Below, in pieces: positions 5,334 to 35,697 of a stretch of DNA of 39,395 bases; the first letter of the stretch is position 1; every line of letters begins with the position of its first letter. The position numbers and the translations under genes are program-made. The notes under the pieces were generated by a model, which saw only the letters and a list, made by a program, of their open reading frames with translations, was not told the DNA's origin and did no database searches. Origin of the DNA: Planctomycetota bacterium (GTDB taxonomy: Bacteria; Planctomycetota; Planctomycetia; JALXBF01); NCBI GenBank assembly GCA_026991575.1, contig JALXBF010000164.1, forward strand, positions 1 to 39,395. Direction: 5' to 3'.

Positions 5334-5487
5334 AGCTGCTGTGTTTGTTGGCGGCATTGCCGTACGTGTGTGTGCCAGCAGGCTGGTCTCGCGGCTCGGC
5401 GCACGGCCGCGTTAAAATTAAGGAAAACCTGTCCGCCATGGCCTACCCGCCGAGCGAAGAGCCTTTCCAACCCGTGAGGTGCCTGCC

Positions 5488-7527: not shown

Positions 7528-8268
7528 CTAGCGGTCCGCGACCCACAAGATCGCCTGTCGGACCAGCCGCCGGTAGAAGGGATTGGCGTATGCTTCAGGG
7601 CCGTGGCCGAGCTGGATGTAGACCACTTTCCCGTCGCCGTACCGCTTGCACCAGCCGATGATTCTCTCGCTCTTGGGATGGTCCGTGGTCAGTAGCACGT
7701 GGACATCGCTGCTGACCCAGTAGCCTTTGTACGTTTCGTCATGGATGGTGAAATCAGTGACCCCTTGCGTCACGGGGTGATTCGGATCGGCGATGTGCAC
7801 GGCGATGCTCTGGCCGTGGGTCGGGATCCCTCTCGGGTACATCTTGCCCTGCCACTTCTGTGGCGACAGGAAGTAGCGGCCGCCGAGCATCATGTGGAAT
7901 TCTGGCCACCCCTGGTGCGCGGCCAGGGCATGGTGCAGGACCACGAGACCGCCGCCTCTCTTGACAAACCCCCGGTAGGCTGCTTTCTGTTTGTCCGTCA
8001 GCGGGCCGTTCCACATGGAGTAGGTAACGATGACGTCGAAGCGCTGCGCGAGCGTGTCGTTGAGCTGTTCGGCAGCCTTCGGGTACGCGTGATGTGTGTA
8101 GCGGATACCGGCAAAGCGATCGAACATGGCGAAAAATGCTTCCTCGTTGAATCCGTGGCCCCCGGTCAGAAGCAGCACGCGGACCGGATCTGCTGGTGAT
8201 GGGGCGCGGGAACCAAGCATGAAGGCTGCTGTGGTGGTGACCAGCAAGGCAGCAAGTAGAGGACGCAT
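7528..8268 (-). CDS. ThuA-like (trehalose utilisation / class I GATase-like) domain protein, exported
   Basis: Signal peptide, RVLLLTGGHG, GGGLVVLHHA, HPVTQGV.DF.IHDETY and YG.GKVVYIQLGH motifs. SD AGGAG lies upstream. Confidence 0.88.
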   Translation of the reverse strand: MRPLLAALLVTTTAAFMLGSRAPSPADPVRVLLLTGGHGFNEEAFFAMFDRFAGIRYTHHAYPKAAEQLNDTLAQRFDVIVTYSMWNGPLTDKQKAAYRGFVKRGGGLVVLHHALAAHQGWPEFHMMLGGRYFLSPQKWQGKMYPRGIPTHGQSIAVHIADPNHPVTQGVTDFTIHDETYKGYWVSSDVHVLLTTDHPKSERIIGWCKRYGDGKVVYIQLGHGPEAYANPFYRRLVRQAILWVADR

Positions 8269-8549
8269 GGTGAGGCTCCTTGGCGATTAGCTTGCGGGCC
8301 GGACGGGGGCGGGTTGGCATCGGTGTCACGTCGTCATTCTACTGAGCCGCATGTCCGGCTTTGCTACCGCCCCTGTGGGCGGTTTCTGGGGTGAACGCGT
8401 GTTCAGTTCATTTCTGGAGCAGGCACCCAGGGGCGCGATCCGCGGGCGGGTGCCATCGTAGCTAAACTAGAGAGAGGTTGCAGACTTTATCGCGTTTTGT
8501 CTGCTCGTCCGCGTCTCGTTGGCCTGACAGTGGCGAGGTGAGGTGACCC

Positions 8550-10889
8550 ATGGAGCGGCCAAACGATCGTCGCAGGTTATTGCCCGTTGTCGACGCCGCG
8601 GCCGAATGGCGCGCTCGACTGACCTGGCTGACCACGGCCTGGATCCTGTTCCTGGGCCTAACGGGCCTGGCACTCTATCTGCTGCCGTTCAGCGAGTTTA
8701 CCCAGTTCAGCCTGCTGGTGCATACGATCGTCGGCGTTGTCCTACTGGTGCCGGTGCTCTGGTACAGCACCCGTCACTTTCTACAGCGGTATCGTGGCAA
8801 GCTGAGTCACTATCAGGTGACGGGCTACGTAGCCGTTGGACTCCTGCTGGTGTGCATCGTCAGTGGTCTGGTGCTGACCTACGAAGGGCTTTTTTCGATT
8901 CGCCGCAGCTATGTCTGGCACCTGATCCACCTGCTTACCGGGCTGACGGTTCTGGCGGCCACGGTTGTTCACTTGATTGCCGTGGCGGTTCGCCCGGTAG
9001 CCGAGGGGGAATCGCGCCAGCGGCTGCGGCAGGCACAGGGGCATTTTGCCAAGCTGACCATTGTTGCAACGTTCCTGGCGTTTGTGCCCGTGTTCGTCTG
9101 GATGGCTGCCTATGAGACCCCTGATCCGTGGAAGCCATTCCCGGAGGACTATAACTGGCGCTTCGGCGAGGACCGACCGTTCGCACCGAGCAACGCGCGT
9201 GCTGACTACTCGGAGTGGATCGAGTCGTTTACCGGCGAGATTGCCGCGTTGTTGTCGGAGGAGCAGGCCGAGCGGTTCCAGGAGCTGCTCAAAGATGTGG
9301 CTTACGACATTAACGGTCCATTCGCCCGAGTGCGTTCGGCGTTGGCGGAGTTGGAGGTTGGCGCCGAGGTGCGCGAGGAGGCGGAGAGGATCATGAAGAA
9401 GGCGGCGCATGTCTTACGGCAACGCGGTGCGCTGAAGGAGTCCATCCTGGCCAACTCAAAGCGGTGCGGCACCAGCGGTTGCCATGAGGAGATTTACCGC
9501 GAATGGCTGCCGTCGGCCCATCGGTACTCTTCGATGGACCACATGTTCCAGGCGGTCCAGGAAATCATGGCCAAGGAACGCTCACCGGAGCACACCCGCT
9601 ACTGTGCCGGTTGCCATGACCCGATCTCGCTGCTGGCGGGAGCCAAGAATCCGAACAACATCACGCTCAGTGTCGAAGGTGCCGACGAAGGCTCGTCCTG
9701 TGTCGTCTGCCACTCGATCGTTCAAACCGATACGCAGGGCAACGCCGATTACACGATCCGGCCGCCGATCAAGTACGTCTACGAAGCCGACGACGGCAAG
9801 CTGGCCCAGATCATCAGCGACTTCCTGATCCGAACCTATCCGGATCACCACATCGCCTCGTACTCGCGGCCGCTGTACAAGACGCCGGAGTACTGTGCCG
9901 CGTGCCACAAGCAGTACATCGACACAGAGGTCAACCTGGATATCGGCCGCGTCCAGGGTCAGAACCAGTACGACAGCTGGAAGAACAGCCGTTGGAACAA
10001 AGGACCTCACTCGGACAAGACGCTCGAATGCCGTGAGTGTCACATGCCGCTGTTGCCCGGCGTCGAGCCGGCAGCAGGCGACCTGGTCGATGCCTACCGC
10101 TCTCCGGACGATGGCCTCCATCGTAGCCATCGCTTCCTGGCGGCGAACCAGTACATGCCCGAGGACCTGAAGTTGGCCGGGGCCAAAGAGCACACAGAGT
10201 TGATCATCAAGTGGCTGCGCGGTGAGTATGAAGTGCCCGAGATCAAGGACAAGTGGACCGAAGGACCTGTGGTGAAAATGCAGCTCATGGTCCCCGAGGA
10301 GGTTCGGCCCGGAGAGGAACTACTGGTCAGGGTGGTGCTGACCAACAACAAGACCGGTCACGACTTCCCAACCGGGCCACTCGACATGATCGAGAGCTGG
10401 GTGGAGCTGCGAATTGAGGATGGTGAGGGCAAGGTGCTGTATCATGCCGGTGCCGTGCAACCGAATGATTTCCTCAAGGATCCGCTGTTCTGGTTCAAGG
10501 CGGACCTGTTCGACCGTGAAGGCAAGCTCGTCGACCGCCACAACCTGTGGGACGTGGTCGGCGCGAAGTACAAACGGGCCCTGTACCCAGGCATGACCGA
10601 CGTGGAGACGATCAAGCTGCTGTGTCCCTCGATGGCACGGCCGCGGCTTCTGCCGGCCGACGGCAGGCCGGGACAGCGTGTCGACAAGTTTGCGGTGAAG
10701 TTGCCCGAGGATATCGTCGGGACGGAACTGCGCGTCAAGGCGGTGCTCTGGTACCGGAAAGCGAATCCGGAGTTCCTGACCGCGGTCTACGGGGTCGACA
10801 CCAAGGAACGGTCGCCGCGCACGGCGATGACGGAAGCGGAGGCGCGCATCAAGGTGGTAGGCTATGAGCGACTTTCGGTTGCTAAGTAA
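8550..10889 (+). CDS. Membrane-anchored multiheme c-type cytochrome (c554-like) with N-terminal His-containing TM domain
   Basis: About 5 N-terminal hydrophobic helices. Heme motifs CAGCH, CVVCH, CAACH and CRECH plus non-canonical CGTSGCH. C-terminal TGHDFPTG motif. SD GAGGTG upstream. Confidence 0.88.
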   Translation: MERPNDRRRLLPVVDAAAEWRARLTWLTTAWILFLGLTGLALYLLPFSEFTQFSLLVHTIVGVVLLVPVLWYSTRHFLQRYRGKLSHYQVTGYVAVGLLLVCIVSGLVLTYEGLFSIRRSYVWHLIHLLTGLTVLAATVVHLIAVAVRPVAEGESRQRLRQAQGHFAKLTIVATFLAFVPVFVWMAAYETPDPWKPFPEDYNWRFGEDRPFAPSNARADYSEWIESFTGEIAALLSEEQAERFQELLKDVAYDINGPFARVRSALAELEVGAEVREEAERIMKKAAHVLRQRGALKESILANSKRCGTSGCHEEIYREWLPSAHRYSSMDHMFQAVQEIMAKERSPEHTRYCAGCHDPISLLAGAKNPNNITLSVEGADEGSSCVVCHSIVQTDTQGNADYTIRPPIKYVYEADDGKLAQIISDFLIRTYPDHHIASYSRPLYKTPEYCAACHKQYIDTEVNLDIGRVQGQNQYDSWKNSRWNKGPHSDKTLECRECHMPLLPGVEPAAGDLVDAYRSPDDGLHRSHRFLAANQYMPEDLKLAGAKEHTELIIKWLRGEYEVPEIKDKWTEGPVVKMQLMVPEEVRPGEELLVRVVLTNNKTGHDFPTGPLDMIESWVELRIEDGEGKVLYHAGAVQPNDFLKDPLFWFKADLFDREGKLVDRHNLWDVVGAKYKRALYPGMTDVETIKLLCPSMARPRLLPADGRPGQRVDKFAVKLPEDIVGTELRVKAVLWYRKANPEFLTAVYGVDTKERSPRTAMTEAEARIKVVGYERLSVAK

Positions 10890-12690
10890 ACGCTATCGTC
10901 TGCTGATCACATGGTCTGTGGTGCTGACCATGAGCATGGCAGCCCTTGGGGCGCTGGGCCTTTTCGCCCTCCGCCCCAAGGACCCCTATCTGGCGCTGAA
11001 AACGGAGGGCAAGATCGAGGGCCTGACCAGCAGGTTCGAACGGAAGCTTGACGAAGAGTTGGTCCGGCTCCGTTTCGAGGAGGTCGCCGAGGATGTCGGC
11101 GTTCGGTTCCGCCACTTCCCGGCGGTCCGCAATTCGCTGCTCCCGGAAGACATGGGGTCAGGGGTTGCCTGGGGAGACTACGATGGCGATGGCGACCCGG
11201 ACCTGCTGCTGGTGAACTTCGCCGGCTCAATCCTGAACTCGCCGGAGCAGTCCGGGCCGGAAGGGGCCTGCGCGCTGTTCCGTAACCACGGCGGCCGGTT
11301 CGAGCCAGTTGCCGCTGCAGCGGGCCTGGACCTGAAACTGTTCGGCATGGGAGCAAGCTGGGGGGACTTCGACAACGACGGCTTCCCCGACCTGTACATC
11401 TCTGCCTATGGCAACAACCATCTGCTGCTCAACAACGGCGACGGAACGTTCGTCGACGTGACGGATGAGGCCGGGGTAAACGACCCGCGGTTCAGCGCCA
11501 GCGTTGCCTGGGCAGACTACGACCGTGACGGCGATCTGGATCTGTATGTGTGCAACTACGTGGCATTCGAATACAGCGAGGAGGATCTGGGCAAACTTTC
11601 CAAACAGTACGGTGAGGAGATCCCATTTACGATCAACCCGACGGTCTACCCCCCTCAGCCAAATGCACTGTTCCAGAACGACGGTCGTGGGCATTTTCGC
11701 GACGTTGCCGATGAGGTCGGGGTCGCCGACCCGAAAGGCAAGTCCCTCGCCGTTGCCTGGTTTGATTTCGACAACGATGGCTGGCTAGATATCTACGTGG
11801 CCAACGACATCTCGGCCAACGGTGTCTACCGCAACCGGGGCGACGGCACGTTCGAGGACATCGGTGCTAGCTCCTTGGCGGCCGACTACCGGGGGGCTAT
11901 GGGAGTTGCCGTGGGCGACTTCGATCTGGACCGAGACATGGATATGCTCGTTACCCACTGGCTGGCCCAAGAGAACGCCTTCTTTGTGAACATGTTCTCC
12001 AAGGGGGTGGTGGACAAACACGGCAACCGGGTGCTGTTCTTCGTCGATGAGTCCGACCGGTACGGCCTCGGCCAGATCTCGATCAAACCAGTGGGATGGG
12101 CGACGAGCTTCGTCGACTTCGACAATGACGGACTCCTGGATCTCTGGGTCGTCAACGGTGACACACTCCAGGTACCGTCCAACCCGCGGCTGCTCCGGCC
12201 GCAGCAGATGCACCTCTTCGAACAGCGTGCTCCGAATGGTTTCTTCCAGGTCGCCGCTCAGGCCTGTCCGGAGCTGGCAGAGCCGTTCGTCGGTCGTGGC
12301 GGTGCCCACGCTGATTTCGATGGCGACGGTCGCGTTGACCTGGCCGTTCTGGTGCACAGCGGTCAGCCGAAACTCCTCCGCAACGTCACGCCGCACCCAG
12401 AACACTGGATCCAGGTGCGTCTGGTCGGCTCCACAGCAAACCGCGGAGCGTACGGGGCACGCATCGAAGTCACCACCGGCCAGCGGACTCAGATCTGCCA
12501 GGTCGCATCTCAGGCACCATACCTGTCCCAGAACTACCAGACAATTCACGTCGGGCTGGGCCAGCACAACGCTGCTGACCGGTTGACCGTGATCTGGCCT
12601 GATGGCAGTCGTACAACGCTGGAGAATGTGCCTGCCGATCGCACCATCACGCTGCGCCAACACGCGGCCGTCACGACCGCGACTGAGTAG
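10864..12690 (+). CDS. CRTAC1-family protein (FG-GAP/VCBS repeats + ASPIC/UnbV domain)
   Basis: N-terminal TM helix, repeated GDYDGDGDPDL/DFDNDG.DLY motifs, and a C-terminal NRGAYGARIEV...YLSQN...IHVGLG...IWPDG ASPIC/UnbV signature. Overlaps the upstream cytochrome gene by 26 nt. Confidence 0.92.
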   Translation: MSDFRLLSKRYRLLITWSVVLTMSMAALGALGLFALRPKDPYLALKTEGKIEGLTSRFERKLDEELVRLRFEEVAEDVGVRFRHFPAVRNSLLPEDMGSGVAWGDYDGDGDPDLLLVNFAGSILNSPEQSGPEGACALFRNHGGRFEPVAAAAGLDLKLFGMGASWGDFDNDGFPDLYISAYGNNHLLLNNGDGTFVDVTDEAGVNDPRFSASVAWADYDRDGDLDLYVCNYVAFEYSEEDLGKLSKQYGEEIPFTINPTVYPPQPNALFQNDGRGHFRDVADEVGVADPKGKSLAVAWFDFDNDGWLDIYVANDISANGVYRNRGDGTFEDIGASSLAADYRGAMGVAVGDFDLDRDMDMLVTHWLAQENAFFVNMFSKGVVDKHGNRVLFFVDESDRYGLGQISIKPVGWATSFVDFDNDGLLDLWVVNGDTLQVPSNPRLLRPQQMHLFEQRAPNGFFQVAAQACPELAEPFVGRGGAHADFDGDGRVDLAVLVHSGQPKLLRNVTPHPEHWIQVRLVGSTANRGAYGARIEVTTGQRTQICQVASQAPYLSQNYQTIHVGLGQHNAADRLTVIWPDGSRTTLENVPADRTITLRQHAAVTTATE

Positions 12691-12898
12691 CAGCCGGCCC
12701 TGTCTGCTCCAGTTAGCCAGCCAGACTGCCCCGGTAGCTGCCCGCCGGACCGAGGCGGCCCAGAGCGGCGTGGTAAAGGGAGGGCCGGTGAAGGGCAGTC
12801 GACGGCGAAACCGCCAGGCAGGTGAACCAAAACGCTCCTGCCGGCCAGACGTGTTGTCTATCCGGACGCTGCCATATGACGCTTTGCCAACGCCGGCG

Positions 12899-13405
12899 TT
12901 AACCAGTCCTCGAGCCAGCGGAACTTCGCTGAGTGCGCTTGCGTCCGCGCGACTGCTTGCCGTTGGTGGTGACGGTCAGGTCGCGCGCCAGCTTATCCAG
13001 CGTATGCTGCGCGAGCAGCTTGAGGAAGTCGTGCTCGATCGTACGGATCCTTAGCGACAGCCGGCAGATGTTCTGACGAGGACACTCCGGCTCGAGGGAC
13101 AGGCCGCAGCGATCAAGCTGGACGCCTTCCAGCGCCGTGTATACCTCACGCAGGCTGGTTTCCTCAGGCGGACGTGCAAGCGAGTAGCCCCCGGCAACAC
13201 CTCGGTGGCTCCGTACCAGCCCCGCCCGCACCAGCTGCTGCAAGACAGCGGACAGGTAGGTGCGCGACGCCGACGGCCAGATACTCTGCATCCAGGCCGC
13301 AAGCTCCGGTAGGGTCGTCACCTCACCGAACCGCTTCTTGGCCATATACGCAAGTGCGTGAGCGGCGTAACCGAACCGCTGGGAAAAGAGTTGGCCAACA
13401 GCCAT
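12899..13405 (-). CDS. Rrf2-family transcriptional regulator with three C-terminal cysteines
   Basis: YL..VLQQLVRAGLVRSHRGVAGGYSLARPPEETSLREVYTALEG is the Rrf2 wHTH signature, followed by C-x7-C-x5-C. SD GGAG upstream. Confidence 0.92.
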   Translation of the reverse strand: MAVGQLFSQRFGYAAHALAYMAKKRFGEVTTLPELAAWMQSIWPSASRTYLSAVLQQLVRAGLVRSHRGVAGGYSLARPPEETSLREVYTALEGVQLDRCGLSLEPECPRQNICRLSLRIRTIEHDFLKLLAQHTLDKLARDLTVTTNGKQSRGRKRTQRSSAGSRTG

Positions 13406-24683: not shown

Positions 24684-25444
24684 TCCAGACGACGGTTCGG
24701 CCCAATGTGCCTTTGGTTCTGATCGGGCATGGCAGCCCGGATGAGCAGGCGAGGCGGGAAGCGGCCGCACTGATCGAGCTTCTGCGACGCGAGGCCCGGA
24801 CACCTGTCTACTGCGGGTACCTTGAGTTCCAGCAGCCTGACGCTCGCAGTGCCATCGCACAAGCGGCTGCTTCGGGCGCTGCAGAGCTGAGTGTCGTTTC
24901 CCTGGTGCTCTTGCCCGGGGCCCACTGGAGCCGGGACGTGCCGCGCCTCCTGGCGGAGGTCGCGTGCGACTTTCCGCAGCTACGGTTTCGCTATGCTCAG
25001 CCTCTGGTGCAGCAGGCCGAGTTGCAGGAGCTTGCACGGGTCCGCGTGCGCGATGCGTTGGCTGCTGGCGCGCAGTGGCGGCCGCACGAGGGTGAGCTCT
25101 GGGTGGTTGCCCGCGGGAGCCGCCGCCGCGAGGTGGATCGTGCGTTGGCTCAGCTGGCGGAACACCTCGCTGCGGATTTTGGCTTCGCCGGCTACGGCCG
25201 AGCGTACGTCAGTGTCGCGGAGCCTACGTTGGAGCAAGTCCTACCATGCCTGCTTGCCCGGCGTGCGGTTATCCTGCCCCTCCTGGCTTTCGGCGGTGTG
25301 CTGGTCAAGCGGATTGAGCGGATGGTCTGCTCTGTGCCGGGGAATGCCGACCGGCTACTGTTGGCCCGACACCTGGGACCGCATCCGTTGCTGGCTGCCG
25401 CGATCATGCGGGCCGCCGTCTCAGCCCCATTGTTGTCACGATGA
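24680..25444 (+). CDS. cbiX: Sirohydrochlorin chelatase (CbiX/SirB family, two-domain)
   Basis: LIGHGS, GYLEFQQP and GAHWSRDVP in domain 1. ARGS...AEPTL...PLLAFGGVLVKRI...HLGPHP in domain 2. ATGA overlap with Nif3. Confidence 0.82.
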   Translation: MIQTTVRPNVPLVLIGHGSPDEQARREAAALIELLRREARTPVYCGYLEFQQPDARSAIAQAAASGAAELSVVSLVLLPGAHWSRDVPRLLAEVACDFPQLRFRYAQPLVQQAELQELARVRVRDALAAGAQWRPHEGELWVVARGSRRREVDRALAQLAEHLAADFGFAGYGRAYVSVAEPTLEQVLPCLLARRAVILPLLAFGGVLVKRIERMVCSVPGNADRLLLARHLGPHPLLAAAIMRAAVSAPLLSR

Positions 25445-25520
25445 ACTGAGCGGCTCCGTCAGCTGTAGAAGTAGTGTTGCCCGGCGCCGCAGGCGATGGT
25501 CAGCTTGTTGCGGAGAACCG

Positions 25521-26633
25521 ATGGCCGAAGAACTGTGGTACGTGTATTCGGATCGGAAGCTTCAGGATGGCAAGACCGGGCCCAGGATCGTGGCGCACAC
25601 GGAGCGGGTCAGCGACACGTTGGCCCGGCTGATGGTTCAGTTGAGCGACTATCCAGCGACGGCCTTTCCTCAGCCAATCTACAGCCACGTCATCGTGCGG
25701 TCGTCCGGGTTAGAGTACAGCATCGTGACGAAGATTTTTCCGCTGTGTGAAACGACGCGCGGTGGGCTGGATTACTTTGCCCAGCACTTCCTGTTCTCCA
25801 CCCAAGACCGGCCCAAAGGGGGACCAGCGTACCTACTGGGGCAGCCGTCCGTGTTCCTGACCTCCTGGGACGGTCGGTCCGGCAAGCTACCGTACCGGAA
25901 ACACATTCCGGACGGTGAGGATCCGCCGCTGCGTTGCGATCGCTGGCAGGACATCGCCGGCGATGCAGGCTGGGCGGGCGTATTGCTACGGCACATCGAT
26001 GAGGGAAAGCCTGAACCGATCTACCTGCTTGCCGAGACGGACGTGCCCGTGATTCACTTGCTTCGCGAAGCGCTAGCCCATCTTGCGCCCCCTCAGCGCT
26101 GGGAGCTGACCTTTTCGACCCACGAACGGCAGTTGCCCAAGAAGGTGCGATGCCAGCTACATGTCGTGCCGCCGTGGCCGAACAAAGAGGAGGAACTGCG
26201 CAAGAAAGGCAACGCGCTGGTCATCAACCTGAACCAGCCGAGGCCGTGCAACGTGGTGCACGAGATGGTTCAGCTCACTCGCCGCGGCAGTCGCGTTGGG
26301 GGCCGGGGCATCTGGCACAGCCAGCCCGCTCCGACCGCCGCGGAACGTCCGCGGCCTGCCTCTGCCACTGCAGCTGCGACCCGGCGCGCTACCACCGCGA
26401 CGTCGCAGCGCGCCGGCCGTGCCAGCCAGCGAAACAGCGGCTCGCGCCGTCCCGTGCCCCAGCTCGGTACCAGTTCGCTGGAAGGGATCTATGCGGAGAT
26501 CGATCATGCCGAGCGGCGTCGGCGACGAATGCAGCTGGTGAAGCGGATCGCCGGCAAGCTGATTGCCTTGCTTCTGGTCGGTGGCCTGCTTGGCGGCGGC
26601 GCCTACGCCGCCTGGTACTTCTGGCTCCGCTAG
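25521..26633 (+). CDS. GAP1-N2/GAP1-M-like domain protein with C-terminal TM anchor
   Basis: ATG 25521 with SD-like GGAG. The sequence MAEELWY...G..IVAHT...LSDY...PIYSH...FAQHF...GGPA and CDRWQDIAGDAGWAGVL...RWELTFST resembles, from memory, planctomycete GTPase-associated protein 1 N2 and M domains. Hydrophobic C-terminus. Confidence 0.6.
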   Translation: MAEELWYVYSDRKLQDGKTGPRIVAHTERVSDTLARLMVQLSDYPATAFPQPIYSHVIVRSSGLEYSIVTKIFPLCETTRGGLDYFAQHFLFSTQDRPKGGPAYLLGQPSVFLTSWDGRSGKLPYRKHIPDGEDPPLRCDRWQDIAGDAGWAGVLLRHIDEGKPEPIYLLAETDVPVIHLLREALAHLAPPQRWELTFSTHERQLPKKVRCQLHVVPPWPNKEEELRKKGNALVINLNQPRPCNVVHEMVQLTRRGSRVGGRGIWHSQPAPTAAERPRPASATAAATRRATTATSQRAGRASQRNSGSRRPVPQLGTSSLEGIYAEIDHAERRRRRMQLVKRIAGKLIALLLVGGLLGGGAYAAWYFWLR

Positions 26634-26742
26634 TGGTCCACGGTGTGCCGGGGGCCCGCGTGTGGATTCCGCTGGTCGGCTGGCACTGAAGCGGACGCGG
26701 TCGTGGTGCAGCTGCTGCTGGCCGTTTCCGCCGCGGCGCCGT

Positions 26743-27027
26743 TCATTCGATGACCGCTTCCGTGCTGCCGCGTTCGAGACCGAGGACCTCACGGTAAACG
26801 ACGGAGCCTGCGGGCAGGCGGTAGATGTAGACGCTGTCGTGCTCAGGATCAATGAGACCGCGGAGGCCGTGTTTGAGCCGCTTGAGCTGGCTTTCGGTCA
26901 GCTCCCCCTCGAACGCCGAGTTCTGCACCCAGTTCAGGAACCGCCGCAGATACTGGCACACCTTGCCTACCCGCCTTTGCTCCACGTCGTAGACCACAAT
27001 GACAAACGGTCTGTTGCCTACCACCAT
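26743..27027 (-). CDS. cas2: CRISPR-associated endoribonuclease Cas2
   Basis: VIVVYDV...RVGKVCQYLRRFLNWVQNSAFEGEL...DSVYIY. ATG 27027 overlaps the cas1 stop. Confidence 0.96.
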   Translation of the reverse strand: MVVGNRPFVIVVYDVEQRRVGKVCQYLRRFLNWVQNSAFEGELTESQLKRLKHGLRGLIDPEHDSVYIYRLPAGSVVYREVLGLERGSTEAVIE

Positions 27028-28028
27028 GCCTTGAGCACCCGGTACGGTTGAACGCCGATCAGGTGGCGGACGAGCTTGTAGCATTCGATGCGCATGAGCT
27101 GCCGGTACGAAACGTTCCGTTTCAAGCTACGATGACGCACCGTCTGCTGCAGGACCGCCTCCCACTCACGCACGAACAGCTTGCGACCGTCCTCGTTTAG
27201 ATAGACCCCTTTCGCGCCACCAACCGCTTGAGTATGCCGATCAGGGTTCAGCATCTTGCGGTTGATCAGGCGAAAGATCAGACGATCGACCAGCAGGGGC
27301 TTGAAGATCTCAGCTATATCCAGTGCCAGGGAGAAACGCCGCTCGGACGGTTCGTGCAGATAGCTGATCGTTGGATTGAGCTGGGTCACGTAGATTTCCG
27401 AGAGGGCAGCCGAGTAGGCCAGGGCATTGCCGAAGGAGATCATGGCGTTGAGCAGGTTGTCCGGCGGGCGACGAACCCGCTTGGTAAACGGTTCGGGCAG
27501 ATCCATGATCTGGTTGAACGCGCCGTAGTAAGCGTCGCGGGATTGGCCTTCGAGGCTCATCAGGGTGGCGATGTCCGGGGCAGTCTTGACCTGCGCCATG
27601 TTCGCCTCGACGACCGCGATGATATCGCCGATCTCACGGCCGCGATTGCGGTAGTAGCGCAAGTTGCGTCGAATGTGGTAGATCGCACCGTAGACGAACT
27701 GCCGGGCGATACGCAGGCGTCGTCGGCCATTGCGGTAGTGCGCTACCTGCTGGACCAGCAGGTGGCCGCTGACGTTGCTCTCACGTGGATAGAACGTCCC
27801 CGTGTAGTAGCCATAGTAGTTGAAGAAGTGCACGGGAATGCCGGCCTGGGCTAGGAAGTTGAGCAGTTTGGTATTCAGCTCGAGTTCTGAGAAAACGTAG
27901 ATATCTCGAACGTCCTCGACGGGTATCGGACGCCGTTGGCGTTGGCCATCCTGCTCGGATTCCAAGTACAGCGTGTTCTGGCGTCGGCGTAGTCGACCGC
28001 TTCGAAACAGGTAATAGGATCTGGCCAT
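27018..28028 (-). CDS. cas1: CRISPR-associated endonuclease Cas1, type I-B-like
   Basis: YYLFRSGRLRRRQNTL, HFFNYYGYYTGTFYPRE, LEG, RRPPDNLLNAMISFGN, ISYLHEP.ERRFSLALDIAEIFKP and C-terminal KAWW, typical of the I-B (Hmari/Tneap) Cas1 clade. Confidence 0.97.
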   Translation of the reverse strand: MARSYYLFRSGRLRRRQNTLYLESEQDGQRQRRPIPVEDVRDIYVFSELELNTKLLNFLAQAGIPVHFFNYYGYYTGTFYPRESNVSGHLLVQQVAHYRNGRRRLRIARQFVYGAIYHIRRNLRYYRNRGREIGDIIAVVEANMAQVKTAPDIATLMSLEGQSRDAYYGAFNQIMDLPEPFTKRVRRPPDNLLNAMISFGNALAYSAALSEIYVTQLNPTISYLHEPSERRFSLALDIAEIFKPLLVDRLIFRLINRKMLNPDRHTQAVGGAKGVYLNEDGRKLFVREWEAVLQQTVRHRSLKRNVSYRQLMRIECYKLVRHLIGVQPYRVLKAWW

Positions 28029-28044
28029 AGCGTGATCCCCCCAG

Positions 28045-28710
28045 TCATCCCCAGCACAGCTCGCAGTACGCGCACGCCTTGCAGTAGGGCTGCCACTCAA
28101 CCTGCGGAGGCCTCGGCAGACTCTCGATAGCCGGGATGTCGTTCAGGGCCTTGATCACCTCCTGTTCAAGCTCTGGTGTCAGCTCGACTCGCTGGACACG
28201 CCGCTGGCGTGGGAATCGCAGTTCCCCGCTCAGGTCGGCGGCCCCCAGTTGCTTTAGGTACCACAGATAGTAGGCCAGCTGGAGGCGGGCGGCGTGGACG
28301 AGCTTGGGTGAATACTTGATCTCGATCAGCCGATTCCGTTGGTGGAGGAGGTCGATGCGAATGAGTTCATGCACCAGCACGTCGCGTCGGTCCTGGTGCC
28401 GATAGGCCGTCTCGTGTAGGAAGCGACCGAGGGCGACGCGGTCGGAGGTGTGTTCCAGGGTGATGTGTCGAGAGAACAGCCAGAGACGGCGGAGGCACGT
28501 GGCCCAGTAGTTGACTTTGACGCCGTTGATCCGCAGCCGACGTGCGGTTTCCGGGTCGACGCTGGGGCAGGCCCTCCGGCTGCTCTGCCGATCGCACACG
28601 CGTTGAGAACGGCATGCTACCGGCTCTGATGGTGACGACGACGCCACGGTGCTTCTGGCTGCCTGCCGTCCAGCCTGTTTCCTCATCACGTTTCGTTTTG
28701 TCGACGCCAC
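28045..28710 (-). CDS. cas4: CRISPR-associated exonuclease Cas4
   Basis: GVKVNYWATCLRRLWLF, IRIDLL...IEIKYS (RecB-like motifs), QLAYYL, and C-terminal CKACAYCELCW Fe-S cysteines. GGAGG lies 7 nt before GTG 28710. An alternative start is GTG 28599. Confidence 0.93.
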   Translation of the reverse strand: MASTKRNVMRKQAGRQAARSTVASSSPSEPVACRSQRVCDRQSSRRACPSVDPETARRLRINGVKVNYWATCLRRLWLFSRHITLEHTSDRVALGRFLHETAYRHQDRRDVLVHELIRIDLLHQRNRLIEIKYSPKLVHAARLQLAYYLWYLKQLGAADLSGELRFPRQRRVQRVELTPELEQEVIKALNDIPAIESLPRPPQVEWQPYCKACAYCELCWG

Positions 28711-28895
28711 GGTTCTTCCTCCGATTCGCGGCAGCCCGATACCGGAGGCTTGGCAACGTCTCTCAGTGACACGCTGCTTCCCTTAACAGGCCCGCTTTCG
28801 TTTTGTTCTTCGGATGGTTCTGCATCCAGCTACTTCGCCGACTACCTCGCAGGCGGGTGGTTGCCTACGCCTGCTGACGGCCTCCGACAGTGTGT

Positions 28896-28929
28896 ACTTG
28901 TTTTGGCAGCGAAACCTGACAACACAAGT
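28896..28929. promoter_or_regulatory. Imperfect 14-bp inverted repeat in the divergent cas4 / DUF1559 intergenic region
   Basis: ACTTGTTTTGGCAG-cgaaac-CTGACAACACAAGT: 12 of 14 positions complementary. The function is inferred only. Confidence 0.4.
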
Positions 28930-29324
28930 GGCAGAGCAGTGTGGCCAGCTCGGCATGGACGTCGCGCTGGATCGGGCCGGGGTAGGTTACGATGTTTTCT
29001 TGTCAGTGGCCGGAACCCCGTGCGGCGGGCCGTCTGCATCGACCCAGGTGCTCGCACAGGTCATGGGCTGTCGGCTGGGCGATAGTTGACGGACGGGGAC
29101 TGAGGCAGATGGATCGCACGGTACCGATTCGAAGGAAAGCATGGCTCGGCAGGTGCCCCCGGAGTGTCTTGGCCAGTCGCCCGCTCGGGCGGCAGTGCCA
29201 AGCCGGCGAAACTCCAGGGCGGTCCACTTGCCGGACCGGCTGCACCGCGTTAAACTACCGGGTGTCAACGCGAGGGTGCCGGAACTGCCTGATGCCGATC
29301 CGGGAGTCTTCGGGAGGTTCGCCG

Positions 29325-30413
29325 ATGCGCCGAGGGTTCACGTTGATCGAGCTCTTGGTCGTTATCGCCATTATTGCCGTGTTGATTGCCCTTCTCTTGC
29401 CCGCCGTGCAGATGGCCCGAGAAGCCGCGCGACGCGCGCAGTGTGCAAACAATCTCAAACAGATCGGCCTTGCCCTGCACAACTACCACCAGGCACACGG
29501 GTACTTCCCGCCCGAAGGTAACAAGGCCTACTTCCAGCCCAGAAGCAAACGCTGGGGCCCGGGGGGAAACCAGTACTGGTCGCTGAAAGTATTCCTCTTG
29601 CCGTACATGGATCGTGCCGACATCTACAACGCGGCAAATCTGGATCTACGCGCGTACGGTGAGCCAGCGGGGTATCGTTCTTGGAGTCGGGACGCGAACC
29701 TGACCCTGCGTCGCGCGCGGATCGAATCTTTCCTCTGTCCGTCGGATCACCACTTCGACCACGCAAATCCCTACCGTACGTCGCAGAGCTATGCTCCCAA
29801 CCACGGAACGGAACGCTACTTCAACAACTGGCGCACGAACGGCATTGTCTATCGACCGGGCTGGTACCGGTACTATCAGAAGCCGCTGGGGGTCCGGGAC
29901 ATTGTCGACGGGACTGCGTTTACGGCGGCGTTCTCCGAGTGGGTGCGCGGCAGCATGGTGTGGAACCGGAGTGTGGAGGCCCGCAGGGCTCTGGCACTGC
30001 GCGACCAGGCTGCCTGGGTCTGGCAAATCCAGCCGGTCTGGATTGCCTTTCCCCGTAGTACGCATCTGGGACGTGAGGGGGATCGCCAGTGGGAGCGTCT
30101 GTGCGAGGCATCACAGATCCCGCGCTGGCACGCCAAGGGAAGCATGTGGTGGGCTTCCGCTACCGGGGCCGGCACTGGCATCGGCTTTGGGAAGCGACCG
30201 AATCGCAAGTCGTGTGCACCTTACTCGCCGCTGTGGTGGGACGTGGGTACGCACCTGATGACGGCCAGTAGCATGCACCCAGGCGGGGTAAATGTGCTGT
30301 TTGCCGACGGCCGCGTGCGGTTCATTTCTGATGAGGTCGACGAGCAGGTTTGGTTTGCCATCGGCACACGGGACGGTCAGGAGCCGATTGACGAGACGGC
30401 CCTCAGCTTCTAG
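29325..30413 (+). CDS. DUF1559 family prepilin-like protein (N-terminal methylation site, H-X9-DG C-terminal motif)
   Basis: [63 protein letters not shown]...T...SE and [20 protein letters not shown] before ATG 29325. Confidence 0.95.
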
Positions 30414-30508
30414 CAACTTCTTTGTGGCGGGCGTCCAGCAGCTCCGGCGCAGCTGGACGCCCCCCCCTTTCGCCAACGACCGTGGATCTCACCATTGGGC
30501 AGGGTGAA

Positions 30509-30724
30509 ATGCGAGTGGTACGTAGTCTGCTAACTGGCATCCTGGTAATCAGTTGCGTGATCGGATGCAGCCAGGGCCCCAAGCCGGCACCGCAGCCGGA
30601 AACAGAACAGGACGTGATGGAAGAAATGCAGCAGCTGTATGGAGATGCCAATCCGGCGAGCGGCGAGATGCCGGGTGAGGTGCCCGAAGACATGGAAAAA
30701 GCCGTCACGGGCGATCTACCATGA
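30509..30724 (+). CDS. Small putative lipoprotein accompanying the DUF1559 gene
   Basis: MRVVRSLLTGILVISCVIGC lipobox-like signal (VIGC) followed by an acidic P/E/M-rich tail. This is the position typical of DUF1559 partner genes. Confidence 0.7.
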   Translation: MRVVRSLLTGILVISCVIGCSQGPKPAPQPETEQDVMEEMQQLYGDANPASGEMPGEVPEDMEKAVTGDLP

Positions 30725-30750
30725 GAACCGATCGGTACCTACCTGCAACA

Positions 30751-30768
30751 GCCCGGCTGGGCCCTTTT
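30751..30768 (+). terminator. Possible weak intrinsic terminator after the DUF1559-lipoprotein cassette
   Basis: GCCC-ggct-GGGC short stem followed by CCTTTT, 26 nt after the stop codon. Confidence 0.25.
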
Positions 30769-31676
30769 GGTAACCAGGAACCGGCGCCTTGGAGAGTCGC
30801 TTAGCGTACGGTGCGCCCTGGAATGTTGATGCGATGCCGAGGACCTGGGGCGAGTGTGACCGGCGGGAGGGAATTCCGGTTCCGACTATTCGAGTGCTAT
30901 TGCGTACCGACCGCGCGGGGTTCGCTGGCGGTAGTTTGGTAACCTTGGTTTCCCGCCCGACTTCTTGAATCCAGCACTGCAGCGCTGCCGCGCCGGAGGG
31001 TTTTCCCCGCCGCTATGAACCGCTCAGCGCTCCCCCGACCTCGTGGCGATGCTCCCCGCGACCTGGTGGCGGCCGCCAGCCACGTACAAGGTGTGCTGCC
31101 CTTCGCGTTGCTCCCTTACGCGCGGTACCCATGCCGGCCAACGGATTCGCGTTCGCTCGGACCAGGAGGGAGTCCGATGCTCTCGCTTGCGCAACTCCCG
31201 TAGCTCCGTCCACTCACACCGGTGTGCCCTCCGGACTTGGGCGTTGGATGCCCGAGAACGCCACAAGGAAGGCGCCCTGGAGTGATATGCTGTCGAGCCA
31301 GTGGTGGACCAGCAACGTGTCGTGGGCCGCTTAACCGAAATCGTCTTGTCTTTTCCCGACAGACCTGCGGCAGCCGCGGGCCCCTCGAGGCACGCTATGG
31401 CGTGGCCAGGAACGCCGGCATCCTCGGACACGTTGTAGCCTCCTTGATCTGACGGTCCCCATTCCCGTACTGGGGGACACATGCATGTCCGCAGGCGTTT
31501 GTTTCCGATCGGGACCTGGACCCGGTACCGGCAAAGCTCCCCTTCAGGAAGGACCTGAGGCTCGCTTCATCGGCGGGCATCGATCCCGTGGAACTCGGGG
31601 CCGTGTTCGTGTAAGAAATTCGGCCCGGACCGGAGTTAGCATTAGGGGACGAGCGCCGTCCCCGAGGAGGCGTGCG

Positions 31677-32513
31677 ATGAGATTCCGGGTCCGTCTCATA
31701 CCGGTTGAGAGCGTTGCGGTTGTGCCGTGGAACTACCAACACCATCTTCAGGGCGTGCTCTACCGCGTGTTGATCGAGGAGCAGCCTGAGCTGGATGAGC
31801 TCTTGCATCGCAGCGGTTTCCCCTCAGGAGCCCGGCGGTTCCGCATGCTAACGTTCTCGAAGCTGCTGCCGCGCGCGGCCGAGACGAGCCACCATGGGCT
31901 GATCCTCCACCCACCCGTCTACTGGCTGATCAGCACCGCACTCGAGGCGGTGGCCAACGCGCTGGTACAGGGGCTGTTGAAACGAGCGGAGATCGCGGTC
32001 GGGGGACAGCAGTTCTTCATCGATCAAGTAGAAGACCAGCCCGTGCCCGACTTCAGCGCGGGGAAGATGCGTTTCGAGACTCTGTCACCCATCGTCGTAT
32101 CGCGGCCGGTCACCGATCAACGAGGTCGGTTAACCAAACAATACCTCGCGCCGGACGATCCGGAATTCTGGCAGCGCGTGGCGAGCAACCTGGCACGGAA
32201 AGCAGACGCGTTGGGCATCGAACCGGTTGGCTCGGTTCAGTTTAAGCCGATCGGTCGATGGCGGTCCCGGTTGATCTCGGTGCAGGGGGCCCGAGTCCGT
32301 GGTTACGAGGGGCGCTTTGTGGCCACTGGGGATCCGGCCCTGTTGTGCCTTGCCTATGACGTTGGGCTAGGCGAACGAAACGGCCAGGGTTTTGGCATGA
32401 TTGGGCTGATGCGCAGCGGTCGGCCTCCACAGGGCAGGCGTGGCTACGGGAGCAGCGGCAACGGGCGGCGGCTCGGCGACGGTGAACAAAGCAACGCAAA
32501 CAGCTGCCATTGA
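31677..32513 (+). CDS. cas6: CRISPR-associated endoribonuclease Cas6
   Basis: VPWNYQHHLQGVLY...LLHRSG...FRMLTFS, FETLSPIVVS, and the C-terminal Gly-rich loop YDVGLGERNGQGFGMI. SD GAGGAGG before ATG 31677. Confidence 0.95.
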   Translation: MRFRVRLIPVESVAVVPWNYQHHLQGVLYRVLIEEQPELDELLHRSGFPSGARRFRMLTFSKLLPRAAETSHHGLILHPPVYWLISTALEAVANALVQGLLKRAEIAVGGQQFFIDQVEDQPVPDFSAGKMRFETLSPIVVSRPVTDQRGRLTKQYLAPDDPEFWQRVASNLARKADALGIEPVGSVQFKPIGRWRSRLISVQGARVRGYEGRFVATGDPALLCLAYDVGLGERNGQGFGMIGLMRSGRPPQGRRGYGSSGNGRRLGDGEQSNANSCH

Positions 32514-33369
32514 CAAGACGCTGGCGGAAATCTGTCGTGAGTTCCGCCTTCCGGCGGTTGCCTCGGAGGCCCAATGGCAGCGGCTGCTAGAGTGCTTGCC
32601 CGTTGCCGTTCGTCGCCGCTTTGAGTGCTATAGCCTGGCGCTAAGCCTGTCTGGTGACCCCTTCGAGCGACGCCGACTTCAAGAGGCGCTGGCCGAACGC
32701 ACTGTCCCGCCAGGCGCCGCCCACATGCTCGAAGAGGCCCTCAGGCTGGCAGCCGCTCCCGACCTGGAGGCACGCTTCTATCGGTTCCTTGGCTCTGACC
32801 CTCAGCTGGTGGCCGTTGGCCTGGCCGGCCGCATGCGGCTGTACCGAGAGCTCCTGCCGTCTCTGGTGGCGGCGGTGACGCAGAGCGGGAGCCCGCCCAG
32901 GCGTATCCTGGACGTAGGCAGTTTCGCCGGCGTGGTCACGGTGACGATCGCTCGGGTTTTCCCGCAGGCCCACGTGATCGGCATCGAACGGGACGTGCGG
33001 TGGGTCGAGGTGGCCCGAGACTTAGCCCGACGCCTGGCCGTGGGCAATGTGCGCTTTGAACCAGCGGACTGCTGGGCGTACAACCCGGAGTGCAGCGTCG
33101 ACCAGATCTGGTGGTTGTTCGTAACGTCAGGTCAGGCGCCCGAGGATCTCCTGGGGGCCATCCTGAGCCGTGCCCGTAGCTGGCTTCGAGTTGGTGGACG
33201 GCTCATCCTGCTGGAGCGCTGGCAACAAGACGTGGACTTGCTCATCCGCTCTGCCGCGCGCGTGGCCGGGTTGGCCATTGGCGATGTGCTTCCCGTCCGA
33301 TGGCACTGCCCCGCGGAAGGCGACCAGCTGCAGAGAACCAATGCGTACTTATTGGACCGCGTCTCGTAA
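32440..33369 (+). CDS. Class I SAM-dependent methyltransferase with uncharacterised N-terminal helical region
   Basis: RRILDVGSFAG (motif I), VIGIERD (motif II), NVRFEPAD and WLRVGGRLILLE. The start is uncertain (GTG 32440 or 32482). Overlaps the cas6 3' end. Confidence 0.82.
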   Translation: MATGAAATGGGSATVNKATQTAAIDKTLAEICREFRLPAVASEAQWQRLLECLPVAVRRRFECYSLALSLSGDPFERRRLQEALAERTVPPGAAHMLEEALRLAAAPDLEARFYRFLGSDPQLVAVGLAGRMRLYRELLPSLVAAVTQSGSPPRRILDVGSFAGVVTVTIARVFPQAHVIGIERDVRWVEVARDLARRLAVGNVRFEPADCWAYNPECSVDQIWWLFVTSGQAPEDLLGAILSRARSWLRVGGRLILLERWQQDVDLLIRSAARVAGLAIGDVLPVRWHCPAEGDQLQRTNAYLLDRVS

Positions 33370-33486
33370 TCAACCCTGCGGGTCACGTGGCTCCTGTCCG
33401 GATCCTCACGCCGGCGCCGGCGGCAAGTCCCGGTGGTTCTGTCCTCACGGGAGCCAGCGTCGCAGCAGCCGGATCCCGCCAAGCCA

Positions 33487-35697
33487 TTAGCCTCCATCGG
33501 ATGGTTCAGCCGATTGTCCTCGCGGTGGCGCGGCTGTCGTTCCTTCATGGTTCCGTTGCCATTCGATCCGGCCTAAACGCATGACCCAGTGGAGACGGGC
33601 CAGGAGCTGGACGTCCTCGAGTGGGTTGCCGTCGACAGCGATCAAGTCTGCCATGGTGCCAGGCTGGACCCGTCCGGCCGGTAGGCCGAGCCAATCGGCG
33701 CAGCGCGACGTGGCTGCTTTAAGCACCTCGATCGGGGGCAGGCCGGCTTCCTGCAGTAAGCGCAGCTCGCGATGCAGGGCTGCACCATGAAACGTGCCAG
33801 GATTCCCGGCATCGGAGCCGGCTACAATGGCGACCCTGGCCTGGTAGGCGGCGCGGACGTTGGCCATGGCTTGGGCAAGCATGGCGGCGCGAGCCTGGGC
33901 CGGAATGAGCGAACCCATGAACCGCGCGAAAGGCTGTTTGAGCACCTCCTGTTCGTTGGCCGACAGTGTCTCGCGCACGAACGGCTCCTCGAGGATCCGC
34001 TCCGCCTCGGTCATCCTCATCAGCCCTTCATAGACGGCGAGAGTCGGGATCAGCACAGCGGATCGTTCAACCATCGTCTGCCATGCCGCCTGCGGCACGG
34101 CACCCGTCACGGGGACGTGCTCGATGCCGTCTGCGCCCATTTCGGCCGCGGCAAGCAGTTCGGCGGGTTCGTCGACATGGACCGAAATACGCAGGCCTGC
34201 GGCGTGTGCTTGGCGGATGAGTTCGCGAAGGATTTCCGGTTCCAGCCGCCGGTAACTGAAGTAGGGCGGAATGCCACCGCCGTAGACCGCTTTGATTGCG
34301 TCTACCTCGCCAAGGCAATCCGCCAGCGCCTCGGGTACTTCGGCAACGGCTGCCAGCTCTCGCACAAACTCGCGCTTGTCCGGCATGAACACAGCGAACT
34401 GGGCCGGATGGCCGCCGGGCGCGGTAAACAGCGGACCGACAAGCACAAACGCAGGGCCCCGCAGGAAGCCGCTCCGCAGCGAATCGCGCACGCTCAGGAC
34501 AACGTTCTTCGCGTCGCCGCAGCTCTTGACCATCGTCACGCCGCACCGGAGGTAGCGTTTCAAGTGTTCCCGCACCAGTTTCCTGGGCTCCGTCGTGAAC
34601 GCCCCGCCGAAGAACAGCCCCCCTGAGGTCAGGTGCACGTGAGCGTCTCCTAGGCCGGGCAGAACGGTCAACTTACGAGCGTCCACTAGCGTTGCTCCGG
34701 CCGGGGGCGGCTCGTAGCCGTCAACCACATCCGTGATCCGCCCGGCGCGGATCTTGATCGTGACCCGTGAACGAAGCTGCTCGGACGTACCATCCCACAG
34801 CCTGCCAGCATGCACGTAGACGGTCCCGGTCGGAAGCAGGGTGAAAGCGATGACGGCTTTCAGCACTCGCGGCGTTGCAAGCAGGCCGACGATCAAGGCC
34901 GCGCTAGTCAGCCACTGGCTTGGCCGCAGCGCCGTGAACGGGTCCCAGCGGAACACTCCGATGGCCAGAGCAAGGCCGAGCACGGCGGTAACCACTAGCG
35001 AGATCGCGGCCAGCAGAATCTCGGCCATCTCCGGCGACGCCTCACCGACAGACTCGGCCGCCCTGACCATGACGCCCAGCGGGTTGTATTCGCCGATTTG
35101 ACGCAGCCAGGAGGGTAGGAACTCGGCCGGGATCGTCGCACCGCTGAGGAACATCATCGGCAGGAAAAGCGTTTGCCCGACGGCCGGCACCAGCTTTGCA
35201 CTCGGCACCGTGGCGGCAATGATTAGCCCGAGTGCCAGTGCCGTCAGGGCTCCACAACCCAGGATGAGGACGGCAAGCGGCAGATGCACGGGGCCAGAGG
35301 GCGCCACCACGATAAGCAGTACGGTGAGCTGAACCGCCAGCGATATCCCCCCGACGATGCAGAAGGCCGTCGCTTCGGCCAACAGCAGAAGGGCCGGCGG
35401 AAGCGGGGTGACCAGGTAACGCCGCAGCACGCCACGCTCGCGCCACGTTACCAGCTGTGTCGGCAGGCTGAAGAGTCCCATCGCGATCATGTTGATGGCG
35501 ACGACCCTGAGGATGAGCCGCCAGTGCTCCTCGGCCGGTAGCCGCGCGAAGATTACCGTGAACGAGACGGCAAAGATGATGGGAAACGCCAGCGTCCAGA
35601 ACACACTCTGCCGGTCGCGCAGCCACAGCCGCAGCGACACAGCCGTGGACTTCAGATAGGCTCGGATCACTCGTCTCGTTCCGCCGGTTTCAGTCAT
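33487..35697 (-). CDS. ABC-2 type transporter permease fused to a metal-dependent amidohydrolase
   Basis: The N-terminal ~250 aa is an ABC-2 permease (RDRQSVFWTLAFP, RERGVLRRYLVTP, PMMFLSGA..P...LP.WL, FRW). The C-terminal part is an amidohydrolase (VLPGLGDAHVH, IKAV, SVHV, GIEHV, AGSDAG, ADLIAVDGNPLED). Confidence 0.9.
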   Translation of the reverse strand: MTETGGTRRVIRAYLKSTAVSLRLWLRDRQSVFWTLAFPIIFAVSFTVIFARLPAEEHWRLILRVVAINMIAMGLFSLPTQLVTWRERGVLRRYLVTPLPPALLLLAEATAFCIVGGISLAVQLTVLLIVVAPSGPVHLPLAVLILGCGALTALALGLIIAATVPSAKLVPAVGQTLFLPMMFLSGATIPAEFLPSWLRQIGEYNPLGVMVRAAESVGEASPEMAEILLAAISLVVTAVLGLALAIGVFRWDPFTALRPSQWLTSAALIVGLLATPRVLKAVIAFTLLPTGTVYVHAGRLWDGTSEQLRSRVTIKIRAGRITDVVDGYEPPPAGATLVDARKLTVLPGLGDAHVHLTSGGLFFGGAFTTEPRKLVREHLKRYLRCGVTMVKSCGDAKNVVLSVRDSLRSGFLRGPAFVLVGPLFTAPGGHPAQFAVFMPDKREFVRELAAVAEVPEALADCLGEVDAIKAVYGGGIPPYFSYRRLEPEILRELIRQAHAAGLRISVHVDEPAELLAAAEMGADGIEHVPVTGAVPQAAWQTMVERSAVLIPTLAVYEGLMRMTEAERILEEPFVRETLSANEQEVLKQPFARFMGSLIPAQARAAMLAQAMANVRAAYQARVAIVAGSDAGNPGTFHGAALHRELRLLQEAGLPPIEVLKAATSRCADWLGLPAGRVQPGTMADLIAVDGNPLEDVQLLARLHWVMRLGRIEWQRNHEGTTAAPPRGQSAEPSDGG

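Follow-up and report, generated by a model that had tools for sequence, protein, structure and literature searches.

What do adaptation genes of a CRISPR (short palindromic repeats that are clustered and regularly interspaced) system and a cas6 gene serve in a neighbourhood that holds neither an intact effector gene nor a repeat-spacer array? The question is raised by a stretch of 39,395 nucleotides (nt) from a Planctomycetota bacterium (assembly GCA_026991575.1, contig JALXBF010000164.1), here called the window, in which cas4-cas1-cas2 and cas6 lie about 3 kb apart and diverge. The window is the complete contig C164 of a metagenome bin of 191 contigs and 4.96 Mb, with an estimated completeness of 97.84%, an estimated contamination of 0.48% and a GC (guanine plus cytosine) content of 64.2%. 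The original prediction, made from the window alone, offered two answers: a stand-alone module serving distant arrays or effectors in trans, or a Cas module repurposed for something other than interference. We consider it likely that the four genes belong to a CRISPR-Cas system whose parts are dispersed over the genome and act in trans, and that this system was split by duplication and loss. An effector operon of type I-B is present on contig C19 and arrays are present on contigs C47, C96, C182 and C187. The first answer is therefore supported at the level of gene content and the second is not supported, and the locus becomes a routine split locus, as the prediction had said it would if such partners were found elsewhere.

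All four genes were found where they had been placed, cas6 being on the plus strand and the other three on the minus strand, and all have Pfam and NCBIfam matches (Table 1). Cas1 passes the cut-off of the curated type I-B Cas1 model, and Cas2 and Cas4 are encoded in the same operon, which runs in the order cas4-cas1-cas2 with a 16-nt gap followed by a 10-nt overlap. This is the only I-B-type adaptation set found in the genome. The residues expected from the prediction were all located in the translations, namely the E/H/E of Cas1, the YD of Cas2, and in Cas4 Cys72, C210, C213, C216 and C219 (CKACAYCELC) together with D120...E130-I-K132. These motifs are presumably catalytic or metal-binding. 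The starts listed for the open reading frames (ORFs) of cas2, cas1 and cas6 overshoot, and start candidates were re-read in the translations. The cas2 ORF extends to 27084, and the gene overlaps the cas1 stop at its probable start, the ATG at 27027; the cas1 ORF extends to 28100, with a probable start at the ATG at 28028. The Cas4 domain begins at residue 62 of the maximal ORF, so that the true start of cas4 probably lies within 28599-28686.

For cas6, the listed ORF covers 31485-32513 on the plus strand, and its first 64 codons overlap, in another frame, the 3' relic of a cas3 gene that is described below. The probable start is the ATG at 31677, which lies six bases after GAGGAGG. The window Cas6 aligns over its full length to Cas6 of Pyrococcus furiosus (3pkm, E 5e-19). 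In this alignment the columns of the Tyr and the His are kept, the Lys is replaced by Arg, and the glycine-rich loop is retained as GLGERNGQGFG, in line with the prediction of an intact Tyr/His pair and Gly loop. The residues concerned in the P. furiosus protein are presumably Tyr31, His46 and Lys52. Genome-wide, PF01881 (Cas_Cas6_C) had two matches, the window gene and a broken copy downstream of cas3 on C19, and PF10040 and TIGR02807 had none. Among the Cas6-family genes found in the genome, that of the window alone is intact.

The prediction that the 39 kb contain no array was borne out. Neither a repeat finder nor Tandem Repeats Finder reported one, and searches of the window with the leader motif and, allowing 3 mismatches, with the core of the repeat found in this genome gave 0 matches each. 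In the 39 kb searched, the adaptation module thus adjoins neither a leader nor a repeat-spacer array. The companion statement, that cas3, cas5, cas7, cas8 and type III genes are missing, was correct for intact genes, of which none was found in the window, but it overlooked the 3' relic of cas3 immediately upstream of cas6. This C-terminal relic surfaced only through tblastx and BLASTP. A tblastn search with the C19 proteins at E 1e-3 found no other interference-gene relics in the window.

Intact interference genes are present on C19, in the order cas8b candidate (514 aa)-cas7-cas5-cas3, followed by the broken cas6. Cas7 matched TIGR02585 with 180 bits, and Cas3, which has a helicase and an HD domain, matched TIGR01587 with 243 bits. 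Cas5 matched TIGR02593 with 40.2 bits (cut-off 17.8); its score of 69.8 bits on the I-B Cas5 model TIGR01895 is below the cut-off of 96.7. The cas8b candidate had no match to a hidden Markov model and is assigned by its position and by 34% identity to its positional counterpart in G010, a complete genome of the same class. At the level of the genome, these genes make up a complete type I-B set (cas8b, cas7, cas5 and cas3). They do not form one contiguous I-B locus with adaptation, processing and an array, the parts being on separate contigs. The cas6 of C19, which is 59% identical to the window cas6 at the nucleotide level, carries an in-frame TAG at 7226-7228 and a frameshift by a 2-nt insertion near 7326, and it encodes Trp where the catalytic Tyr of P. 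furiosus Cas6 aligns.

The window and C19 are related well beyond cas6. By tblastx and blastn, window 30940-39350 is a colinear paralogue of C19:116-13388 (Table 1); many weak pieces of 20-35 bits that were also present were treated as background. Window 31453-31611, within the cas3 relic, aligns with residues 686-736 of the 736-residue Cas3 of C19 (51 aligned positions, 43% identity, no gaps; BLASTP E 2e-9 in a single comparison), and both the relic and the C19 cas3 stop about 60 nt before the cas6 ATG. The tblastx pieces of window 30940-31427 have shifting frames and mark the left end of the block. At the other end, more colinear pieces beyond the BNR/LamG gene carry the block to C19:13388 and window 39350. 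The part of C19 from about 850 to 6650, which spans sequence upstream of cas8b, cas8b itself, cas7, cas5 and most of cas3, has no counterpart in the window.

Because a cas3 relic lies in an otherwise colinear block, the window copy appears to have once held the interference operon and to have lost it in one deletion. In the history that we propose, a chromosomal block of cas8b-cas7-cas5-cas3-cas6 and its neighbours would have come to exist in two copies that diverged. The window copy would then have lost cas8b to most of cas3 by a single deletion of about 5.8 kb and retained cas6. The C19 copy would have retained the interference genes, and its cas6, most of its methyltransferase gene and its ABC genes would have decayed. 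Left of window 30940 there is no colinearity with the chain of contigs that includes C141 and C19 (pieces of at least 30 bits kept), and the DUF1559 gene and cas4-cas1-cas2 lie outside the block. The adaptation genes may thus have lain either inside or outside the ancestral locus.

The four arrays were found by a k-mer scan of the genome contigs. Their 54 repeats all belong to one 37-nt family with three variants that are 1-2 positions apart, and separate 50 spacers with lengths of 34-41 nt. Read in the sense of transcription, 51 of the 54 repeats end in ATTGAAAC, and the remaining three are degenerate. Cognate repeats with an 8-nt 3' handle thus exist in the genome for the window Cas6. The degenerate repeats are found at the array ends distal to a conserved flank of about 170 nt, which is taken to be the leader and which is alike in all four arrays. 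Folding of the repeat RNA gave no significant hairpin (-6 kcal/mol, z -1.1). Averaged per array, the spacers have a GC content of 45-47%; that of the genome is 64.2%, and such a difference is expected if the spacers stem from foreign DNA. In a search of the spacers against their own genome, one partial 22-nt match and no self-target were found. Two spacer-derived patterns were also searched in viral contigs. The only match to one of them (20 nt) has flanks that differ from the spacers and was rejected as a protospacer; the other had 0 matches, and no protospacer adjacent motif (PAM) was derived from the two.

The leaders (C182:4730-4926 and its counterparts) carry paired GC-rich inverted motifs, TTGCCCGSACC ... 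GGTSCGGGCAA, which may bind a host factor or a regulator. We also note that several spacers in different arrays overlap or are variants of each other (spacer 7 of C182 and spacer 15 of C187; spacers 17 and 18 of C187; spacers 1 and 2 of C96). It looks as if the same invader region had been sampled repeatedly by the arrays.

The I-B operon is not the only effector module in the genome. The Pfam RAMP families have 12 matches, confined to three contigs. C183 carries a III-B module (cmr2, cmr3, cmr4 and a cmr6/cmr1 fusion), and C32 and C27 carry two III-D-like modules with cas10, csx10, csx7, csx19 and TIGR03986. On these three type III contigs there is no array and no Cas6 match. Cas1 matches three genes of the genome: that of the window, one fused to cas4 (cas4/cas1g) beside a cas2 on C67, and one on C96 that is paired with cas2 and accompanied by a reverse transcriptase (RT) gene. 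The C96 unit (L019:10609-13788, minus strand) stands immediately upstream of the leader and consists of cas1, cas2 and the gene of a group II intron-like reverse transcriptase, all on the same strand. The C96 array (30571-31130, 8 repeats) has a repeat identical to that of C187. RT-cas1-cas2 units are usually tied to type III, and the one on C96 is a candidate RNA-spacer acquisition unit that shares arrays with the I-B module.

The closest relatives of the window genes are found in I-B systems with cas6 in last position. A Cas6 homologue at E 1e-10 was present in 2 of the 60 relatives searched. One, G010, carries cas8b-cas7-cas5-cas3-cas4-cas1-cas2-cas6 as a contiguous locus with an array behind it. 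Its Cas4, Cas1 and Cas2 are 53-65% identical and its Cas6 is 38% identical to those of the window; for its Cas8b, Cas7, Cas5 and Cas3 the identity to the C19 proteins is 34-50%. Over the 3' 25 nt, its 30-nt repeat agrees with the repeats of the present genome at 22 positions (counted by hand). A Cas1 search returned 80 loci, of which eight were examined together with two loci from relatives. Among these 10, cas6 follows cas2 in three (G010, the Fervidibacterota metagenome-assembled genome L031, and Desulfovirgula thermocuniculi, L032), lies upstream of the operon in three, occurs without the other genes in one (G001), and is missing from the stretch in three. The closest Cas1 relatives, at 61-65% identity, belong to the contiguous loci with cas6 last. 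With nearest homologues at 65% protein identity or less, the dN/dS estimate suggested in the prediction would meet saturated synonymous sites. The prediction had measured the window against a canonical I-B order that starts with cas6; in the closest relatives cas6 stands at the end.

Like these cas6-last loci, the window has related Cas4, Cas1, Cas2 and Cas6 proteins, and the 3' end of the repeat is common to G010 and this genome. In contrast to them, cas4-cas1-cas2 is inverted relative to cas6 and 3 kb away from it, with a DUF1559 gene in between, the genes from cas8b to cas3 have been lost by deletion, and cas6 has no array behind it. In both copies of the block, moreover, cas3 or its relic abuts cas6 without cas4-cas1-cas2 between them. 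The only genome of the same family, G001, shares cas6 alone with the window and none of its neighbours (pieces of at least 45 bits). Neither an I-B cas7 nor an I-B-like cas1 was found in this genome, which is 94% complete; its second Cas1 is only 24% identical to the window Cas1 and hence not I-B-like. The I-B genes are therefore not a conserved feature of the family. The cas6 of G001 (locus L029:1-10395) stands alone, 3.4 kb from a III-D module, with sulfatase and alpha/beta-hydrolase genes between them.

A comparable layout has been established experimentally in P. furiosus. According to the published account (PMC4436667), one Cas6 makes the CRISPR RNAs (crRNAs) of seven dispersed arrays for three effector complexes, the arrays have essentially one repeat and lie far from the cas genes, and the crRNAs carry the 8-nt 5' tag AUUGAAAG. 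P. furiosus has one Cas1/Cas2/Cas4 set. Both genomes have one Cas6 of the same structural family, dispersed arrays with essentially one repeat, an 8-nt tag (AUUGAAAG there, ATTGAAAC here) and several effector types, between which crRNAs would be shared here as well. The present case differs in that the organism is a bacterium, that cas6 and the adaptation genes lie outside any effector cluster, and that the origin of the split can be read from a cas3 relic and from a further cas6 that is broken.

By analogy with P. furiosus, the window Cas6 and Cas4-Cas1-Cas2, which are presumably expressed, most likely act in trans. Cas1-Cas2 together with Cas4 would add spacers to the four distant arrays at their conserved leader. 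Cas6 would cleave each 37-nt repeat 8 nt from the 3' end, so that AUUGAAAC remains as the 5' tag of the crRNA. The crRNAs would be loaded into the I-B Cascade and Cas3 encoded on C19 and probably also into the III-B and the two III-D-like modules, beside which there is no cas6 and no array. In this last respect C183, C32 and C27 resemble type III systems that borrow cas6, cas1-cas2 and arrays from a co-resident type I system. They differ from such systems in that they only presumably use the window Cas6, and in that RT-cas1-cas2 is also present.

Several points weigh against a dispersed system served by the window genes. Two further adaptation units are present (RT-cas1-cas2 on C96 and cas4/cas1g-cas2 on C67), and the arrays may be filled by one of these instead of the window module. 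Csb2 of contig C60, an intact Cas5-Cas6 fusion and the only other candidate repeat nuclease, could also process the repeats. The deletion seems to have taken the sequence upstream of cas8b with it, and a sigma-70 scan, which may not fit the phylum, gave no promoter-like site upstream of cas6. The same scan gave 0 promoter-like sites for the whole of 28600-31750, where two terminator-like sites compare with 2.5 expected by chance, an uninformative outcome; cas6 is co-oriented with the upstream DUF1559 gene. The cas3 relic has no significant match to Cas3 of G010 (E 0.066). No RNA run was listed as containing the stretch, which counts neither for nor against expression. Finally, the genome is a 191-contig metagenome bin, and C47, C182 and C187 are assigned to it by binning and by their shared repeat and leader, with 127-nt overlaps in addition for C47 and C187.

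The alternative that survives best is that only cas6 is in use, that the arrays are filled by RT-cas1-cas2 or by the I-G cas4/cas1-cas2, and that the window cas4-cas1-cas2 is a redundant, undecayed leftover. RT, cas1 and cas2 lie on the same strand directly upstream of the C96 leader and array, the repeat of this array is exactly that of C187, and the four leaders are alike, so that any one integrase could serve all of them. Even with these points in its favour we regard the alternative as unlikely, since cas4, cas1 and cas2 of the window have kept their full length and every motif, the I-B model gives Cas1 435.8 bits, and the repeat resembles the one beside the related I-B cas1 and cas6 in G010. 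PAM-dependent I-B interference, furthermore, normally needs Cas4-assisted spacer choice.

It is less probable still that the whole set, cas6 included, is a non-functional remnant of a decaying locus. The interference genes are indeed deleted here with a cas3 relic left behind, the region left of the relic is decayed, there is no array or leader nearby, and the only same-family genome searched is without I-B-type cas1 and cas7. All four ORFs, however, are open and keep their catalytic motifs, while the other copy of cas6 is interrupted by a stop and a frameshift. A Cas6-type nuclease, moreover, is needed by four effector modules and four well-kept arrays, and no intact one other than that of the window was found.

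A split produced by assembly or binning, with a chimeric window or with C19 and the array contigs derived from another organism, is very improbable. A metagenome bin of 191 contigs, with array contigs that are short in three cases (C47, C182 and C187, 7-10 kb), would allow it. A misassembly across the cas region, which the prediction had named as a possible objection, is nevertheless not supported: a 15,459-nt contig produced from run X1 by a different assembler spans window 26700-33400 with 0 differences and no joint. Run X1 may be the source sample of the genome, so that this agreement shows reproducibility and is not an independent confirmation; run X2 gave four short pieces only (151-256 nt). 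The estimated contamination is low. Neither a strain variant nor a collapsed repeat accounts for the block of about 8-13 kb common to C19 and the window, whose copies are 72% identical in nucleotides over the BNR/LamG gene. Contig ends that overlap by 127 nt give the chains C106-C131-C3-C164, C141-C19-C26, C187-C96 and C47-C151, and thereby tie C187 to the 58-kb C96 and C47 to the 42-kb C151. Were C164 to adjoin the C141-C19 chain through its free right end, a distance of at least about 12 kb would remain between cas6 and cas8b. A Cas module repurposed to act outside immunity, for which only the absence of effectors and array within 39 kb speaks, is scarcely credible given complete partners elsewhere in the genome and a neighbourhood that suggests no new partner.

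Table 1. Features of the window and their counterparts on contig C19.
Feature	Window position	Strand	C19 position	Evidence or remark
cas2	26743..27027	-		CRISPR_Cas2 (Pfam) 76.4 bits; TIGR01573 40.5 bits, cut-off 24.5; VVYDV motif
cas1, type I-B class	27018..28028	-		TIGR03641 'type I-B Cas1b' 435.8 bits, cut-off 304.1; SLEG, YLHEP, DIAE
cas4 (maximal ORF)	28045..28710	-		Cas_Cas4 (Pfam) 151.3 bits; TIGR00372 77.5 bits, cut-off 65
DUF1559 / prepilin-type N-terminal methylation, H-X9-DG protein	28992..30413	+		SBP_bac_10 (DUF1559) 157.8 bits; N_methyl 33.6 bits; TIGR04294
Decayed region from upstream of cas8b	30940..31427	-	123-799	two colinear blastn pieces (matched window part 30947-31427), 61% and 64% identity, E 4e-12 and 1e-15
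cas3 3' relic	31453..31614	+		53 open codons and stop; frame other than that of cas6
End of cas3, match	31459-31677		6650-6868	
cas6, 278 aa	31677..32513	+		TIGR01877 114.9 bits, cut-off 58.65; Cas_Cas6_C 100.6 bits; Cas6_I-A N-terminal domain 54.5 bits
cas6, match	31677-32432		6869-7626	48-67% protein identity
Rest of block	32440..39350		7709-13388	Paralogous
Methyltransferase	32440-33369	+		Pfam domain
Methyltransferase, match	33040-33378		7709-8047	On C19 only the C-terminal third left
ABC-2 permease-amidohydrolase fusion	33487-35697	-		Pfam domains
ABC ATPase	35694-36827	-		Pfam domain
ABC ATPase, match	36399-36692		8092-8385	On C19 only about 98 codons left
BNR/LamG protein	36999-38702	+		Pfam domains
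BNR/LamG protein, match	36931-38585		8787-10437	76% protein identity

The DUF1559 gene that separates cas4 from the cas6 block is of a Planctomycetes type unrelated to cas, and the rest of the window contig consists of ordinary chromosomal genes. The 736-aa product of ORF 33487-35697 combines an ABC-2 type permease (residues 21-246) with an amidohydrolase (residues 344-701), which is an unusual fusion if the ORF is real; the gene is absent from the C19 copy of the block. Convergent with cas2, a gene at 24891-26633 (+) has a product of 580 aa that matches the GAP1-M domain (middle domain of GTPase-associated protein 1) with 41.7 bits; it may be a further conflict-system gene next to cas. A small ORF at 30422-30724 (+), after the DUF1559 gene, has no family match; with a hydrophobic N-terminus and a Cys, its product looks by eye like a protein with a lipoprotein signal. 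A search of the entire window against Rfam gave 0 matches at the gathering score.

The type I-G genes of the genome are split like those of type I-B, with adaptation genes and relics on C67 and an intact effector on C60. C67 (L022:89-3929) carries an intact cas2 and the cas4/cas1g fusion (666 bits), together with fragments of the N-terminus of cas3g (model positions 1-85 and 108-196, in two frames) and of the C-terminus of csb2 (model positions 216-490). C60 (L113:479-8822) carries an intact csb1-containing protein, csb2, cas3g and a Cas3-extension, with no adaptation genes before the contig end. If it is not due to chance, this parallel tentatively raises the idea, which we consider possible but on the doubtful side, that the uncoupling of acquisition from interference by duplication and reciprocal loss is recurrent and perhaps favoured. 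If true, the outcome of such uncoupling would be a 'hub' layout, with several effector systems fed by one module of adaptation genes and Cas6.

For the annotation of draft genomes, the locus suggests that 'effector-less' clusters of cas1-cas2-cas4 and cas6 should be checked against the whole genome before they are called orphan or repurposed. The practical value for CRISPR biology is small. What the genome, of a poorly sampled lineage from a hydrothermal-vent metagenome, offers is an unusually legible record of CRISPR-Cas dispersal: the block is duplicated, 51 codons of cas3 persist as a relic, the second cas6 is broken and type I-G shows the same pattern. The genome is also a candidate for a natural setting in which a single Cas6 and a single I-B integrase serve I-B, III-B and III-D effectors from four arrays.

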